From a virus: DNA of 64,000 nt. The translations under genes and the position numbers were made by a program. The notes below the pieces were generated by a model that had not been told where the DNA came from, searched no databases, and saw only the letters and a program-made list of their open reading frames with translations. Within the stretch, counting starts at the first letter, position 1. Each line of letters begins with the position of its first letter. The stretch spans positions 1 through 64,000 of IMG/VR virus record IMGVR_UViG_3300029922_000029; one strand, written 5' to 3'. Below, one piece after another: positions 29 through 62,760 of the stretch.

Positions 29-2731
29 ATGGAGGGGACAGCCACGGACGGTGGAGCCCCGAGTAAGATCGTGCCTTACGGCAACTTCGAAGACGTCATC
101 ATCAACTGCCCGGCACTCCAGCCACTTTGGGCTAAGAACGCTGAAGGCCAGTACATCTGGGACATCAGCAATCCCAAAGGGCTCTTCCACCAAGCCCGAT
201 ATGCTTCCATGACGTTTGGCATGGCAACCAAGGGCGGAGAGGAGTTCCTCAAGCGGAGGTGGCCAGGACCCAGGACCGAGAGTTACATCGCACAGGGAAA
301 AGCCGCGGGCTACACCCCCGTAACATGTAAGTACATGCAGGAGAATGGAATCTGTGTGGTGGGCAAACATCCCAAGCACGGCGACCACTGCATGAAGAAG
401 ATCCCCCCTTCCGTTCGCTCAGGGGGTGTGACTCAAATCAATCCAGACAACCTGCCCGAGGATCAATGGAAAGAGCCCTCTCCTATCCGGAACTCAACCC
501 CAAAACACCTCACTGTAGACGAGGCCATTGAATCGATCGTGTGGTTGTCGGAAGCCAAAACAAAGAAGCTGAGATCAGGGCCTCCTGATATCGACCCAGC
601 CTCTGGCCGTCCGATTGTGGAGGACTCCTATACGCCTGACAACCTCGATGAGCGGATCGAGGGGCTCATGCGGCACATGAGGACCTTCCCGCCCGAGGAT
701 CAGAAGAAGATCCAGGCAGCCATCACGGGCAATAACCTCATGAGTAAGAAGGAGCTCAAGGAGGAGACGAAGCGAATCGACAAAGAGATTCAGATTGATG
801 CCTTTACCAAGAGGGTTGCCGGTAAACGCTCTTATGTGCTGAATGAAAAAATAACCCTCTACGTAGATGATGACGAGCACTATTACAGCGTGAGTGAGCT
901 TGACGCAAAAGGCATCCCTCACGACCGCAGGATATCGAACTTCACCGTTACCATTCAAGAAGAGCACGAGGTGATTCGGATCTCTGACGAACCCGATAGC
1001 GGTCAACAGTCGGTTATTGAAGATCGTTATTTTCTGGGAGTGATTCACGCGCGCGGGCAAGTCAAGCTTCTCCCTAAGATTCGTACGGATGACTGGAATA
1101 AGAGTAGAGATTCCTTTTTCCGGCAGATCGTAAAATCAGCCGGGACTGCGATCGCCTACTTGAGTGCGGATTACGATCTGATTCGTAACTGTGTCCATGA
1201 ATTCAGTCACGAGGGCGTCGTCGTCAAGAGGATCTGCCGGGAGATTGGTCATCATAAATTACAGGGCGGAAGAGACGTCTATATGATGCCTTCGGTGATT
1301 ATCTCCAAGGATGAGATTAAGCCGAATGATGAGTACGTGGTCGAGCCACTGGGAGCGGGGAGCAAGCGAAGCAAACTCGACTTTGCCTTGATGTCGGCCG
1401 AGGAAGCCAAGGATCTGAGCTACCATCTCATCAATGATTACTTCCACTGCAACATCCCGATTCTCACCCGGACAACGTTTGCCCACGCGATGGCGGCCGC
1501 CATCACCCCACAGATTGAGGAAGCGGTCGGATACCGAAAAGCTCCGACTCTCTTTCTCGCCGGATCTTTGGGGGATGGGAAAACGTTCGTTGCGGAGTCA
1601 GCTCAGTGTTTCTACGGGAAGGTTGATATCAGCACGGGGAATTACGGGAGCGCGAAAGCTAAGCTCGCACTCGCCTACATGTTCCGTCATGCGATGCTGT
1701 TGATTGATGATTACAAGCAGAGCTCGAGCGATACAGCGGGCCTGGATATCATGAATCTGATTCAGCAGACCTACGATCGTAGTGAGCGAAACACACTCAA
1801 GAGGGACTCGAGCCTCAAGGACGACGCTCACTGTGCCAGAGGACTGATGACGATCACTGGGGAGGAGTTTCCAGATAAGGAAGCCAGTGCCGTCTCACGC
1901 CTGATCCTTCTGGATATCGAACTGAAGGCGAATCGCGAGAGAGGTGATATCGTCACTAAGCGACGCTCCGAGTACTCAGGCTTCACGGCCCACTTCATTC
2001 ACTTTGTCTATCAGCTAGGGAAAGATGAACTCATCAAGATGTGGGAGACCTACTTCAATGATCTGCACGAGCCCGTGAAGGTAGATCACGCCAATAAGGC
2101 CGCTGGCCGAATTTGCGAGAATCTGACCTTGAACATGGTCGCGTTTCGCCTCAGCATGGAGCTTATGATCCAGCTTGGGGTGGATCCAAAGATCGCTTAT
2201 GGCTTGGCGGAAGAGCATCTGAATGGGATGTACAGGCTTAGGGACACCATGATCCAAGCTGTATCGAACGCCAAGGGTGGCAATCAGTTCCTAGATGCTC
2301 TGGTGGCGATGATGGCGATGCCGAACAAGTATCGGATTCATGGATGGCCTTATGCCAGTGGTGAAATTGATACGTTCGCCAACGGGTCACCTACGGCGGT
2401 TCCGATTGGGTTCTACAAGCACGAGACACCTGACGTCGTCTACATCATCCCGGCCCTGGCTTATCCTGAAGCCAATCAGCTCGTGAGTAAAGGTAAAGAG
2501 AGCCTTCAGACGAAGCAGCATGTGAGTCGTCAACTCAAAGAGGGTAAGCATATGGATAATAATATGCTGACTGATGGTACGAGAAGGGACTGCCAGAGGC
2601 GGTCTCCGCAGGGTGGCCATAGCGTTCGGGTTTGGCCGATCTTGCTGACTTCTGTGGGCGTAGACCGGCTGAAGCTCGTGAATCCTATTCCTGTTGACAG
2701 TGGGAAAAAACTGCCTTACAAGGATAGCTAA
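29..2731 (+). CDS. Primase-helicase, 5'-truncated (Cys-rich primase accessory region plus DUF927-like P-loop ATPase)
   Basis: Frame is open to the window edge. Walker A LAGSLGDGKT, Walker B LLIDD, ITGE...SAVSR motif. N-terminal CPAL...YTPVTC...C...HC cluster. Confidence 0.7.
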   Translation: MEGTATDGGAPSKIVPYGNFEDVIINCPALQPLWAKNAEGQYIWDISNPKGLFHQARYASMTFGMATKGGEEFLKRRWPGPRTESYIAQGKAAGYTPVTCKYMQENGICVVGKHPKHGDHCMKKIPPSVRSGGVTQINPDNLPEDQWKEPSPIRNSTPKHLTVDEAIESIVWLSEAKTKKLRSGPPDIDPASGRPIVEDSYTPDNLDERIEGLMRHMRTFPPEDQKKIQAAITGNNLMSKKELKEETKRIDKEIQIDAFTKRVAGKRSYVLNEKITLYVDDDEHYYSVSELDAKGIPHDRRISNFTVTIQEEHEVIRISDEPDSGQQSVIEDRYFLGVIHARGQVKLLPKIRTDDWNKSRDSFFRQIVKSAGTAIAYLSADYDLIRNCVHEFSHEGVVVKRICREIGHHKLQGGRDVYMMPSVIISKDEIKPNDEYVVEPLGAGSKRSKLDFALMSAEEAKDLSYHLINDYFHCNIPILTRTTFAHAMAAAITPQIEEAVGYRKAPTLFLAGSLGDGKTFVAESAQCFYGKVDISTGNYGSAKAKLALAYMFRHAMLLIDDYKQSSSDTAGLDIMNLIQQTYDRSERNTLKRDSSLKDDAHCARGLMTITGEEFPDKEASAVSRLILLDIELKANRERGDIVTKRRSEYSGFTAHFIHFVYQLGKDELIKMWETYFNDLHEPVKVDHANKAAGRICENLTLNMVAFRLSMELMIQLGVDPKIAYGLAEEHLNGMYRLRDTMIQAVSNAKGGNQFLDALVAMMAMPNKYRIHGWPYASGEIDTFANGSPTAVPIGFYKHETPDVVYIIPALAYPEANQLVSKGKESLQTKQHVSRQLKEGKHMDNNMLTDGTRRDCQRRSPQGGHSVRVWPILLTSVGVDRLKLVNPIPVDSGKKLPYKDS

Positions 2732-12322: not shown

Positions 12323-12553
12323 TCAGAATCAGATCTATAGCGGCCATTGCTGCGCCTGCACCGGCGTTTGCGGGCATGTGGGTCCTCCTGCTTTTTGTCC
12401 AAGGCATTCTTCGGCACCTATCCAAGGAATCTCTCTCCCGTTTTTTCAGCACGCCTGGATCTGCCCGGCTTGCCGCGGAGGCGTGGCGCCCGGAGTTCAG
12501 CGTTGCCCTTGTGTACCCTTGACAACACTAACCTTCACGGGTATCTCAGACGG

Positions 12554-13423
12554 ATGCGTACTCAAGACCTCAGAGACAATGAGCGAGACAGAAAGAGATA
12601 TTTCTTCCACAAACGTGGATGGCTGAAGCACTGGCAGTGGGAAGCATTGCTCTGCAGATCCCGATTCAAAGAACACATCCTGACGTGCAACCTCTCATTG
12701 GGCGGTGAGGATCCGCGCGAGGTCCAGTTTACGTTCGCACTCCTAGGCGCCGCGATCTACCTGACATTCCACAACCTACTGCCTGAGAAATGGGCAGTAG
12801 GCTGGTACATGCGAGGCGAAGTGAAAAACCCTCGCTGGCATGAAGACTCCATGGGCAAGGACTGGGGTTTCTACATCTACGACGACTCCTTTGTGTTCCA
12901 GTGGAACCACACGGCGGCCGTCAGCGGTAAGGATCCTAAGTATGGCTATTCGAAGCACTTCTACTTTCCTTGGAGCTGGGGCTCAAGCGTCCGTAATCAG
13001 GTTCTGACGGCCGACGGCAAGTGGGTCGACGCTCCTTATGAGGCAAGGTCGAAGGCCTGGCGGAATCTTCGTAAGCTTAACCCAGACGCAAGCTTCTTTG
13101 ACCTAAAGGATGCTGACTACCCTGATCTGGCCGAGTACCACACCGCTGACTACACCTACACCCGAAAGAACGGCGAAGTCCAGAAACGGATCGCCAAGTT
13201 CCATGTTGAAGAACGGGAATGGCGCTGGCTCATGTTCCATAAGCTTCCCTTTGCTTTTGGGCCCAAGCTGGTCAATCGCTGCATTGACGTGCGCTTCGAT
13301 AAGGAAGTGGGAGAGAAATCTGGTTCGTGGAAGGGTGGCACGACCGGGTGTGGATACGAGATGAAGCGCGGGGAGACGCCGCTTGAGTGTTTACGGCGCA
13401 TGGAGAAGGAGAGGAAATTTTGA
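12554..13423 (+). CDS. Conserved phage hypothetical protein (Trp-rich)
   Basis: C-terminal EVGEKSGSWKGGTTGCGYEM...LRRME; start position uncertain. Confidence 0.7.
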   Translation: MRTQDLRDNERDRKRYFFHKRGWLKHWQWEALLCRSRFKEHILTCNLSLGGEDPREVQFTFALLGAAIYLTFHNLLPEKWAVGWYMRGEVKNPRWHEDSMGKDWGFYIYDDSFVFQWNHTAAVSGKDPKYGYSKHFYFPWSWGSSVRNQVLTADGKWVDAPYEARSKAWRNLRKLNPDASFFDLKDADYPDLAEYHTADYTYTRKNGEVQKRIAKFHVEEREWRWLMFHKLPFAFGPKLVNRCIDVRFDKEVGEKSGSWKGGTTGCGYEMKRGETPLECLRRMEKERKF

Positions 13424-14504: not shown

Positions 14505-14791
14505 CTCGCAAAGACCTAGACCTCATGGTCGCCAAACTCCTCCAGCACCAATGCACTTGGGACGGCAGGAACTGGGAATCCATCGACTCCGACGATCGCG
14601 CACGCTACACCCGCAGCGCTGAGGAGATCACCTCTACTCTAGACTATCTGGGTCTGCTGGTGGGTCAAGTGAGTCGCCAGAATGCCCAGGCTTGGCGGAA
14701 TGCCGTAAAAGCTTTAGCAGGGCCTCCTTCTGCGGACAGCTCAGAGAAGAAACCTTCTGCGCCCGAAACTCCTGCGTTAAAATACTCTTGA
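14501..14791 (+). CDS. Hypothetical protein
   Basis: TTGA overlap with the previous stop codon. Confidence 0.55.
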   Translation: MTRKDLDLMVAKLLQHQCTWDGRNWESIDSDDRARYTRSAEEITSTLDYLGLLVGQVSRQNAQAWRNAVKALAGPPSADSSEKKPSAPETPALKYS

Positions 14792-14915
14792 GGTTCTCGA
14801 GCGGGATGCGCCTGACCTCCGGCATCAGGAGGTGGTCGAGCTCGAGGTGGGATCGGTTGGATTCAGCCATATCGTAGGTGTACAGCATGCGACTGTATGC
14901 TTCAAGGGAATTTAA

Positions 14916-15055
14916 AGTCCAGATGGGGCTCGAACCCACGACCCACTAGATATTTCACTAGGTACTCTACCTGACTTTCGTCATGCCCTACTCAGCCTGC
15001 ATCCCTCTCGGCGCCGATCCGTATGCAAACCTTTTGGCCACTGAGCTACTGGACA
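14916..15055 (-). ncRNA. tRNA-like RNA with a 68-nt D-loop insertion and a non-canonical anticodon arm
   Basis: Minus strand reads GTCCAG-TA-GCTCAGTGG-[68 nt]-TAGAGT-A-CCTAG-TGAAATAT-CTAG-TGGGTC-GTGGG-TTCGAGC-CCCAT-CTGGAC. Confidence 0.7.
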
Positions 15056-15075
15056 AAACGAACATATCATAAAAT

Positions 15076-15490
15076 TGGTTGAGGTGGGGTGAATCGAACA
15101 CCCGTCCGAAATCTATCCAATCGACTTTCTACACATGCTTTGCCACAGTTTTGATTCTCGTGGCCCGAAATAGGGACGACCTGGCTTTCGCTAGACCTTC
15201 CTCCACCATCCGGTTTTTTAGCCCCAGACCGGCAACAGGGCTTCGGATTAATACTGGCCTTACGGCCTTCATCATCGCGGAAGCGCGCGATTTTTGCCGG
15301 ATTCCTTTGACGGGCTCTCGGCGCCCCGCTACCTAATTACTTAGGCGGCTTTGGCGACTTCCACAACCCGGCGGGCTGCGAAGTCGACCACGATCACATT
15401 GTCAGTCTGTGAATGCCCATTTTTAGGTGGTCCTAGGCGCCACCGCATGCAAGTCGATTTTCAAAGATCCCGTCGAAACCTTTCACCCCA
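15076..15490 (-). ncRNA. ssrA: tmRNA
   Basis: 5' TGGGGTGAAAGGTTTCGACGGG and 3' GGACGGGTGTTCGATTCACCCCACCTCAACCA, with a G3:U70 pair and encoded CCA. Internal tag ORF 15403-15341 reads DNVIVVDFAARRVVEVAKAA*. Confidence 0.95.
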
Positions 15491-15523
15491 ATGACCAACC
15501 AGTATACCACACACAGTTCGCGG

Positions 15524-16375
15524 TCAAGCCCTAGAAATCAAAATCCCCAAATCCACCAAATCCTTCGCGGTGCCCGCCCGAATCCTCGAATGCTCCCAGG
15601 AATTGATGGTCATCCAGAAGCCCATCGGTCGAAACAAAATGATCTTGTAAGAGCCCGAAGGGTCCGAGAATAATCCCGAGACCTCCCGCATGCGCTTGAG
15701 TGCGCTCCGCGGTGCCCAGATGACCACGAGACCTTCGTCATCAAAGGTAGCCGCTACTGCGGTCTTGGCCCCAAGTTCTAACGCCTTACTGAGCCGGAAG
15801 AGGTACTCCGATCGATCGAAGACTGCCTTGGACTCCGGCTGAAGGCCGACCTCAGGCTCACCTCGCGTATCCAGAAAGGTCGTAGCAGCAATCTCAGCGA
15901 AACGACCCTCTGGCTTTGGGCCAGCGGAGCTCAGTGCATCTAAATATTCTTTCCCGGCTTTCAGACTGCCGAGCCCATCCAGACCTAGGGATGCCACGGA
16001 ATCACGTAGCGGAGGCGGCAAGATCATTCGAGACATGACTGGATCTGGCGCTGCTGATGCGGGGAGTCCACCACTGAAAGGCCTGATCCGACTCGCCGGC
16101 CGATGCTGAATAATATTGGGACTGACATGATTGTAGCGGGTTTCCTTAGTATCCATCTCCCGGACAATCACGAAGCTGGGCTCGCGATAAAAGACAGTCT
16201 CTTTTTTAGGGCTGATGGTTCTGGCTCGATTTCCATGGCAGAACTGGCCTAGCGTCGTGCGCTCGCCGAGCTCGAGACGTTTCAATATTTTCCCCGTGTG
16301 GGTCCTCTGCACCTGGAGTGATGGCACGACCGTTTCCCACTCAACCATCTCGCCTTCTTTGTAGTCAGTTTTCAT
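15524..16375 (-). CDS. Hypothetical protein
   Basis: 283 aa on the minus strand, upstream of the tmRNA. TAGGGT -10 box 6 nt before the ATG. Confidence 0.7.
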   Translation of the reverse strand: MKTDYKEGEMVEWETVVPSLQVQRTHTGKILKRLELGERTTLGQFCHGNRARTISPKKETVFYREPSFVIVREMDTKETRYNHVSPNIIQHRPASRIRPFSGGLPASAAPDPVMSRMILPPPLRDSVASLGLDGLGSLKAGKEYLDALSSAGPKPEGRFAEIAATTFLDTRGEPEVGLQPESKAVFDRSEYLFRLSKALELGAKTAVAATFDDEGLVVIWAPRSALKRMREVSGLFSDPSGSYKIILFRPMGFWMTINSWEHSRIRAGTAKDLVDLGILISRA

Positions 16376-62685: not shown

Positions 62686-62760
62686 TCCGGGGTGCACCAC
62701 AAGTAGGTGAGCACACTGTTAATGTGCCGTATGCTGGAGCGTTACCAGCCCCCGGAGCCA
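62686..62760 (+). tRNA. tRNA-Asn(GTT) with non-canonical D and T loops
   Basis: TCCGGGG/CCCCGGA-G-CCA acceptor, CACC/GGTG D stem, GCACA-CTGTTAA-TGTGC anticodon arm and GCTGG-AGCGTTA-CCAGC T arm. Confidence 0.88.

Follow-up and report, generated by a model that had tools for sequence, protein, structure and literature searches.

A tRNA-like gene with a 68-nt D-loop insertion lies directly behind the tmRNA gene of an uncultured peat-soil phage and may encode a non-decoding tRNA mimic

The window analyzed here is the first 64 kb of the 108.7-kb IMG/VR virus record IMGVR_UViG_3300029922_000029 (52.6% G+C, ∼70% complete), whose genes include those for a large terminase and a DNA polymerase as well as several of anti-defense type. 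Among the sequencing runs listed, those containing the record are peat metagenomes and none containing the locus is an RNA run; no close relatives of this uncultured peat-soil phage were found among cultured phages or in IMG/VR. A compact RNA cassette lies on the minus strand. It is headed by a tmRNA gene (15076..15490 (-); ARAGORN and Rfam RF00023, 95 bits) with an encoded CCA and, according to ARAGORN, a 25-residue tag. Ten nucleotides separate the tmRNA 5′ end from the end of a promoter-like site read from the sequence (15501..15527 (-); TTGACC, a 15-nt spacer with TG, and TATACT), which a consensus promoter scan skipped because of its 15-nt spacer. An A/U-rich stretch of 20 nt (15056..15075 (-)) leads from the tmRNA CCA to the 5′ end of a tRNA-like gene (herein the element; 14915..15055 (-)), and 44 nt beyond the element follows P0002, an orphan ORF of 78 aa (14634..14870 (-)). 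A weak sigma-70-like site (TTCACC-16-TATGAT; 15066..15093 (-)) has its predicted start at the 5′ end of the element; it shows 9/12 matches, and ∼1.7 sites of this kind are expected by chance in the scanned region. Since the site scan found no terminator-like site between the element and P0002, the two probably share one transcript.

Flanking the element are two same-strand proteins, P0001 (283 aa) and P0002, both orphans with no family or fold assigned. P0001 has no homologs among 5.8 billion proteins, and searches of Pfam, PHROGs and the ESM Atlas were uninformative for P0001, P0002 and the small upstream ORFs alike. At a distance of 1.5 kb from the cassette, 12347-13423 (+) encodes a 358-aa protein with a match (E = 2.8e-43) to PF25187, the Acb3 family of CBASS inhibitors. 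The closest homologs of this protein are P0004 on a 149-kb contig (64% identity) and P0005 on a 110-kb contig (54%), and the two contigs may represent related phages. An SmpB gene was not found in the 108.7-kb record (∼70% complete).

The element comprises 141 nt including a discriminator U. In a 271-nt search, the Rfam tRNA model RF00005 aligned with 14915-15055 (-) over model positions 1-71 at 25.8 bits (E = 0.002). The alignment puts one insertion of 70 nt into the D-loop, makes the anticodon loop 8 nt long, and has nonstandard pairs at 1:72 and 27:43. The gathering threshold of the family is 29 bits, so that by score the element falls short of a canonical tRNA, and it does not appear in the Rfam search of the whole window at E ≤ 5. 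ARAGORN makes no call on the element with its insert; once 15037-14970 is deleted exactly, its output is a tRNA-?(Phe|Ile) of 73 nt whose loop has 8 bases and whose anticodon it proposes as AAAU.

The 5′ part (15038..15055 (-)) holds the acceptor strand with U1 unpaired, U8 and A9, the D-stem strand GCUC, and A14, G15, U16, G18 and G19; its 18 nt agree with all conserved tRNA positions, and the D-loop bases AGUGG occupy 15042-38. The 68-nt insert (14970..15037 (-); placed by the sequence, RNAfold and ARAGORN) follows between G19 and U20/A21. The halves that flank it pair across it, forming six of the seven acceptor pairs (15055-15049 with 14922-16) and all four pairs of the D stem (15046-43 with 14967-64). 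Downstream of the insert, 14945..14969 (-) contains U20, A21, the 3′ D-stem strand GAGU, A26 and the anticodon arm, an assignment on which sequence, Rfam and ARAGORN agree. Four of the five anticodon-stem pairs form (C27·U43 is mismatched), and the 8-nt loop, UGAAAUAU, has a G at position 33 after its first U, in place of the 7-nt loop with U33 of a canonical tRNA. The 3′ part (14915..14944 (-)) consists of the variable loop GGGUC, a canonical T arm (14939-14923; GUGGG-UUCGAGC-CCCAU, 5/5 pairs), the acceptor 3′ strand, the discriminator U and a U/A-rich trailer. A U1·U72 mismatch tops the acceptor stem and CCA is not encoded, although it is in both the tmRNA and the tRNA-Asn of the phage. The first-pass annotation had described these features, namely a tRNA-like gene with a 68-nt D-loop insertion directly behind the tmRNA, a 6-bp acceptor stem, U8-A9, a GCTC/GAGT D stem, a canonical T arm, an ordinary D arm on removal of 15037-14970, an 8-nt anticodon loop, and no encoded CCA. 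All were reproduced, and the gap that it put at about 20 nt on the same strand after the tmRNA CCA is exactly 20 nt.

Read from the sequence and the Rfam alignment, the tertiary core is canonical throughout: U8-A14, A9 with U12-A23, G10-U25 with G45, C13-G22 with G46, G15-C48, G18 and G19, A21, and, on the T side, G53-C61, U54, U55, C56 and A58. The cloverleaf stems and conserved core nucleotides of a canonical tRNA are present, and the deviations are confined to the decoding and charging ends while the core is intact. Shuffled sequence would be expected to contain 0.75 canonical T arms; the whole 108.7-kb record contains two, those of the element and the tmRNA.

The phage's only ARAGORN-called tRNA, a tRNA-Asn(GUU) at 62686-62760 (+), is a mirror image of the element, with a normal anticodon arm and an abnormal elbow. 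It has four perfect stems and an encoded CCA, with a promoter-like TTGACC-17-TAGGAT upstream and a hairpin followed by a T-run downstream. Its D-loop (ACAAGUA) lacks G18 and G19, its T-loop is AGCGUUA rather than UUCRA, and the Rfam tRNA model does not report it either at the gathering score or at E ≤ 5.

In other peat runs, contigs cover the full element with no differences (X2, 14824-15166; X6, 14867-15089). This identity excludes an assembly artifact, and the element is real DNA. The contigs of the four peat runs show no differences at all, which gives no information on constraint.

RNAfold predicts that the insert forms a longer hairpin with an internal loop and a second hairpin, UGAC-GAAA-GUCA. 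The hairpins drawn by eye in the first-pass annotation were thereby recovered, but the fold is not significantly more stable than that of shuffled sequence (z about -1.1 to -1.25, p about 0.1-0.14). The same holds for an alternative fold in which the 5′ part of the tRNA pairs with the insert: this foldback was reproduced and is close in energy to the cloverleaf (-43.3 versus -41.2 kcal/mol), but it is not significant (p = 0.18), and a conformational switch between the two forms is unsupported at this p value. The energies of insert duplexes with the tmRNA or neighboring mRNAs are no better than those of shuffles, and docking of the insert on the P0002 mRNA was rejected on finding a 12-nt complement at chance level. 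By inspection, the insert ends can be closed by two C-G pairs only.

A record-wide word search identified an 11-mer within the insert, GGCGCCGAGAG (15005..15015 (-)), whose second and only other copy in the 108.7-kb record lies in the tmRNA (15315-15325 (-)), just past the stop codon of the tag. Sharing of this word has p = 0.016 against shuffled inserts in a single test. A tmRNA-associated RNA had been among the interpretations first offered; only adjacency and this one shared word would speak for a functional tie between the element and the tmRNA. The insert is not a copy of tmRNA sequence, the 11-mer being all that is common to both, nor a repeated mobile element, being unique in the 108.7-kb record. 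Its final bases, UCAGG, echo the UCAGUGG that immediately precedes it.

Within the 271-nt element region, Rfam returned only tRNA, tmRNA and permuted tmRNA at E ≤ 10 with permissive filters, and the insert itself, for which the first-pass annotation had suggested an Rfam search, matches no known family at that cutoff. The permuted tmRNA alignment (RF04321) reaches 18.9 bits versus 47 and rests on the T arm of the real tmRNA. A tmRNA remnant of either family (RF00023 or RF04321) was dismissed, the element having a full D stem and anticodon arm, unlike the tRNA-like domain of a tmRNA. A leader duplicate or tRNA-linked repeat was likewise set aside: only UCAGG recurs before U20, and there is no second copy of the acceptor or D-stem strand.

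Relatives of the locus were sought at several levels. Blastn with the tmRNA and the element against 50,697 phage records was blank. In the viral contigs, no relatives of P0001, the Acb3-like protein or TerL were found, nor any match to the exact junction and 3′-half patterns, and the tmRNA 3′ end had a single match, on the unrelated AT-rich contig L286. An element-specific pattern found no match in the metagenome contigs, nor did the insert-free body in the genome contigs, where the insert pattern gave 34 matches that were all tandem tRNA-like pairs or leader duplicates. Among the collections searched the element is thus a single orphan locus, an observation of limited weight. Nothing relevant on tRNAs of phages or bacteria with D-loop insertions or introns was found in the literature searched.

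Contig L286 (IMGVR_UViG_3300033143_001396) carries at 150-700 (-) a chain of permuted tRNA/tmRNA-like pieces on which ARAGORN makes no call. A T arm with CACCUCA-ACCA is followed 28 nt on by the complementary UGAGGUG and a D-arm-like hairpin, and a second T arm with CCCCAUCAC is followed ∼100 nt on by GUGAUGGGG.

A structural pattern, the two D-arm halves separated by 42-72 nt and followed by a T loop, uncovered three unrelated tRNA genes with inserts of 53-71 nt at the D-loop spot occupied in the element, on two viral contigs and one metagenome contig, and each is called by ARAGORN only once its insert has been removed. Two are otherwise canonical: L010, on a 174-kb viral contig, has anticodon CUA and a 53-nt insert, and L125, on a viral contig of 253 kb, has anticodon UAU and a 71-nt insert that folds very stably (z = -5). 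The third, L153, is intergenic on a metagenome contig and has a 66-nt insert, a GUU loop with A33, and U1·U72, so that it shares with the element both the 1:72 mismatch and the missing U33. The four inserts have no common sequence; tblastx revealed no protein similarity between the contigs of the three analogs and the 108.7-kb record, and blastn of L010 and L125 against phage isolates retrieved generic tRNA 3′ halves only. These genes show that long inserts after G19 recur in otherwise intact phage tRNA genes and, by the example of L153, that the combination of an insert with disabled ends is not peculiar to the peat phage. The search pattern itself fixed the insertion site, so the analogs are no proof of a site preference.

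What looks like a small version of such an insertion is present on a 145-kb viral contig (L002:7890-7999 (-)), where two tRNA genes adjoin and the second contains a D-loop hairpin of ∼14 nt after G18 and G19.

Non-decoding, tRNA-shaped phage RNAs have been known since species 1 and 2 of T4, encoded by rnaC and rnaD in the T4 tRNA cluster (AF158101 70908-71171), and these provide the best analogy for how the element might work. The T4 RNAs are small (∼120-140 nt), phage-encoded and part of one transcription unit with tRNA-type genes, as the RNA of the element would be. In the rnaC RNA a canonical T arm is combined with an acceptor-like helix that closes the molecule, and Rfam gives it a weak tRNA-Sec-like alignment (17.5 bits). 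Unlike the element, it does not retain a whole cloverleaf interrupted by one insertion; neither rnaC nor rnaD resembles the element in sequence, and the T4 genes lie in a tRNA array whereas the element adjoins a tmRNA. To our knowledge, the function of T4 species 1 and 2 RNA is still not known.

A second comparison is with YrlA and related bacterial and phage Y RNAs, non-decoding RNAs whose tRNA-like domain has D, T and acceptor elements (PMC4201824). YrlA is recognized by RNase P, the CCA-adding enzyme, DusA and TruB, and is present in phages (Chen et al. 2014, PMC4201824). The family is defined by a Ro60-binding stem and linkage to TROVE/Ro60, whereas the extra RNA of the element exits from the D-loop and its ends form an ordinary acceptor stem in place of a Ro-binding stem. 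No match to TROVE/Ro60 (PF05731) was found in the 108.7-kb record (∼70% complete) in a search in which control genomes were positive. With neither this gene nor an Rfam hit, the specific YrlA-like role raised in the first-pass annotation finds no support; its more general suggestion of a tRNA mimic or decoy is the one that best fits a canonical core combined with a defective loop, 1:72 pair and CCA end.

As architectures, class II tRNAs and engineered tRNA scaffolds resemble the element in combining a tRNA frame with an extra helical arm while keeping the L-shape. The natural extra arm of class II tRNAs is at the variable loop (positions 44-48), and in engineered scaffolds the insert takes the place of the anticodon arm. 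The literature searched contained no example of an arm at D-loop position 20.

We propose that the element is a tRNA-derived gene for a stable non-decoding tRNA mimic of ∼141 nt with an extra arm at the elbow, a reading to which we assign a probability of about 0.45. Judged by its sequence, the element retains all the features needed to fold into the tRNA L-shape, and its decoding loop and 1:72 end appear unfit for normal translation. The mimic would be transcribed together with the phage tmRNA, or from just behind it, and should be open to processing by RNase P, RNase Z, the CCA-adding enzyme and the enzymes that modify the tRNA core. The 68-nt arm would leave the D-loop in the variable stretch from G19 to A21. 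In canonical tRNA structures the D-loop around residue 20 varies in length and its residues point outward at the elbow; on these steric grounds the arm could protrude without breaking the contacts of G18 and G19 with the T-loop. So built, the mimic might occupy or divert a host or phage factor that recognizes the tRNA shape, such as a tRNA-targeting defense nuclease; alternatively, it might serve as a stable tRNA frame that presents the extra arm. A decoy for tRNA-directed defense enzymes is plausible given the anti-defense genes nearby, including the Acb3-family gene at 12347-13423.

Three things tentatively favor the mimic: the core left intact while the ends for decoding and charging are selectively disabled, the tight and expressed-looking same-strand cassette (tmRNA, 20 nt, element, 44 nt, P0002), and the parallel in L153. 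Counting against it are the lack of homologs in the searches, the shuffle-level fold of the insert and the sub-threshold Rfam score. As for a partner, the record (∼70% complete) yielded no TROVE, RtcB or SmpB, and the neighboring proteins are orphans.

The set of defects that marks the element would also be expected of a decaying gene, and this too counts against the mimic. A former phage tRNA that was broken up by an insertion or small mobile piece of 68 bp and has drifted since, its loop and mismatches being decay, is unlikely in our estimation, although it would account for several independent defects, for an insert without significant structure, for the UCAGUGG/UCAGG echo, which resembles a decayed target-site duplication, and for the absence of the element from any relative in the collections searched. 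What speaks for maintenance is the pattern of change: the core tertiary positions, D stem, T stem and six acceptor pairs are intact, and the changes lie at functionally separable ends. Moreover, 140 nt of dead DNA in a tight cassette would be rare for a phage genome, L153 independently combines an insert with U1·U72 and the lack of U33, and the insert sequence, found nowhere else in the record, gives no sign of a mobile family. A purely cis-acting role, in which RNase P or RNase Z would cut at the element, so that the tmRNA is freed at its 3′ end and the 78-aa mRNA gains its 5′ end, and in which the released RNA would itself have no role, we consider improbable. The position of the element would suit such a signal, 20 nt from the tmRNA and 44 nt from the ORF on one strand with no terminator-like site, and its intact parts (acceptor, T arm and elbow) are the determinants of RNase P and RNase Z. 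Such a signal would leave the 68-nt insert and the retained anticodon arm and D stem unexplained, the tmRNA already encodes its CCA, and a promoter-like site stands ahead of the element itself.

Removal of the insert from the RNA was the basis of another early proposal, a new mini-intron, which fared poorly and which we place lowest in probability. Here the 68 nt would be excised and the resulting 73-nt tRNA, with CCA added, would decode by its 8-nt loop, for example as a four-base or +1 frameshifting tRNA. Exact removal does leave an ordinary 7-nt D-loop and an ARAGORN tRNA call, and L010 (CUA) and L125 (UAU) are otherwise canonical decoders in which the inserts must be either tolerated or removed. 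Self-splicing introns, however, are far larger than 68 nt; the group I introns of bacterial and phage tRNA genes, which likewise interrupt tRNA genes, measure at least 200 nt and sit in the anticodon loop, whereas this insert lies in the D-loop and matches no Rfam intron. Models of group I and group II intron cores gave no match at E ≤ 10 in the 271-nt search, nor did hammerhead, twister, pistol, hatchet and HDV-like/theta ribozymes in the element at that cutoff; self-cleaving ribozyme families were equally without a match in L010 and L125. Archaeal noncanonical tRNA introns, which include D-arm positions and are cut at bulge-helix-bulge motifs, are closer in kind, being short, protein-free, outside the anticodon loop and removable to give a normal tRNA. 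The carrier here is instead a bacteriophage with a tmRNA, a bacterial system. Inspection of the junctions (15038/15037 and 14970/14969) revealed no bulge-helix-bulge, that is, no 3-nt bulges flanking a 4-bp helix, and neither a splicing endonuclease nor RtcB was found in the 108.7-kb record (∼70% complete). An insert-less DNA form was not seen in the contigs of the four peat runs. The product would be a poor decoder in any case, since G33, A34 and U1·U72 are unfavorable for ribosomal decoding and EF-Tu binding, and no gene in the 64-kb window was seen to require an AUUU-type shift.

If the mimic reading is true, D-loop position 20 is a natural place for adding RNA domains, and the element offers a clean construct with which to identify the tRNA-binding host factor that such mimics target. 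A broader and decidedly speculative extension, which we consider rather doubtful, is that the element, L010, L125 and L153 represent an unrecognized polyphyletic class of phage tRNAs and mimics with a folded arm at D-loop position 20, for which the elbow would be a natural scaffold; the non-decoding members (the element and L153) would then be decoys or inhibitors of tRNA-directed host defense enzymes. Standard tRNA finders miss such genes, as ARAGORN called the element and its three analogs only with the insert deleted.

Two other arrangements of tRNA-like genes came to light. For many metagenome tRNA genes the first ∼19 nt, through GCUCAGUGG, are also present as an exact copy ahead of the gene (L134, L149, L151, L179, L198, L201, L205 and L245); the spacer is 45-65 nt long and often contains a hairpin and a complement of the copy, and the copies end at the D-loop position where the insert of the element starts. 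Metagenome-assembled genomes of Hyphomicrobiaceae and other Alphaproteobacteria contain a conserved tandem pair (L259, L260, L264, L266, L270, L274 and others), which opens with a shortened tRNA-like gene that has a GC stem and a 4-nt loop for its anticodon arm; the second gene, directly after it, is also tRNA-like and has no encoded CCA.
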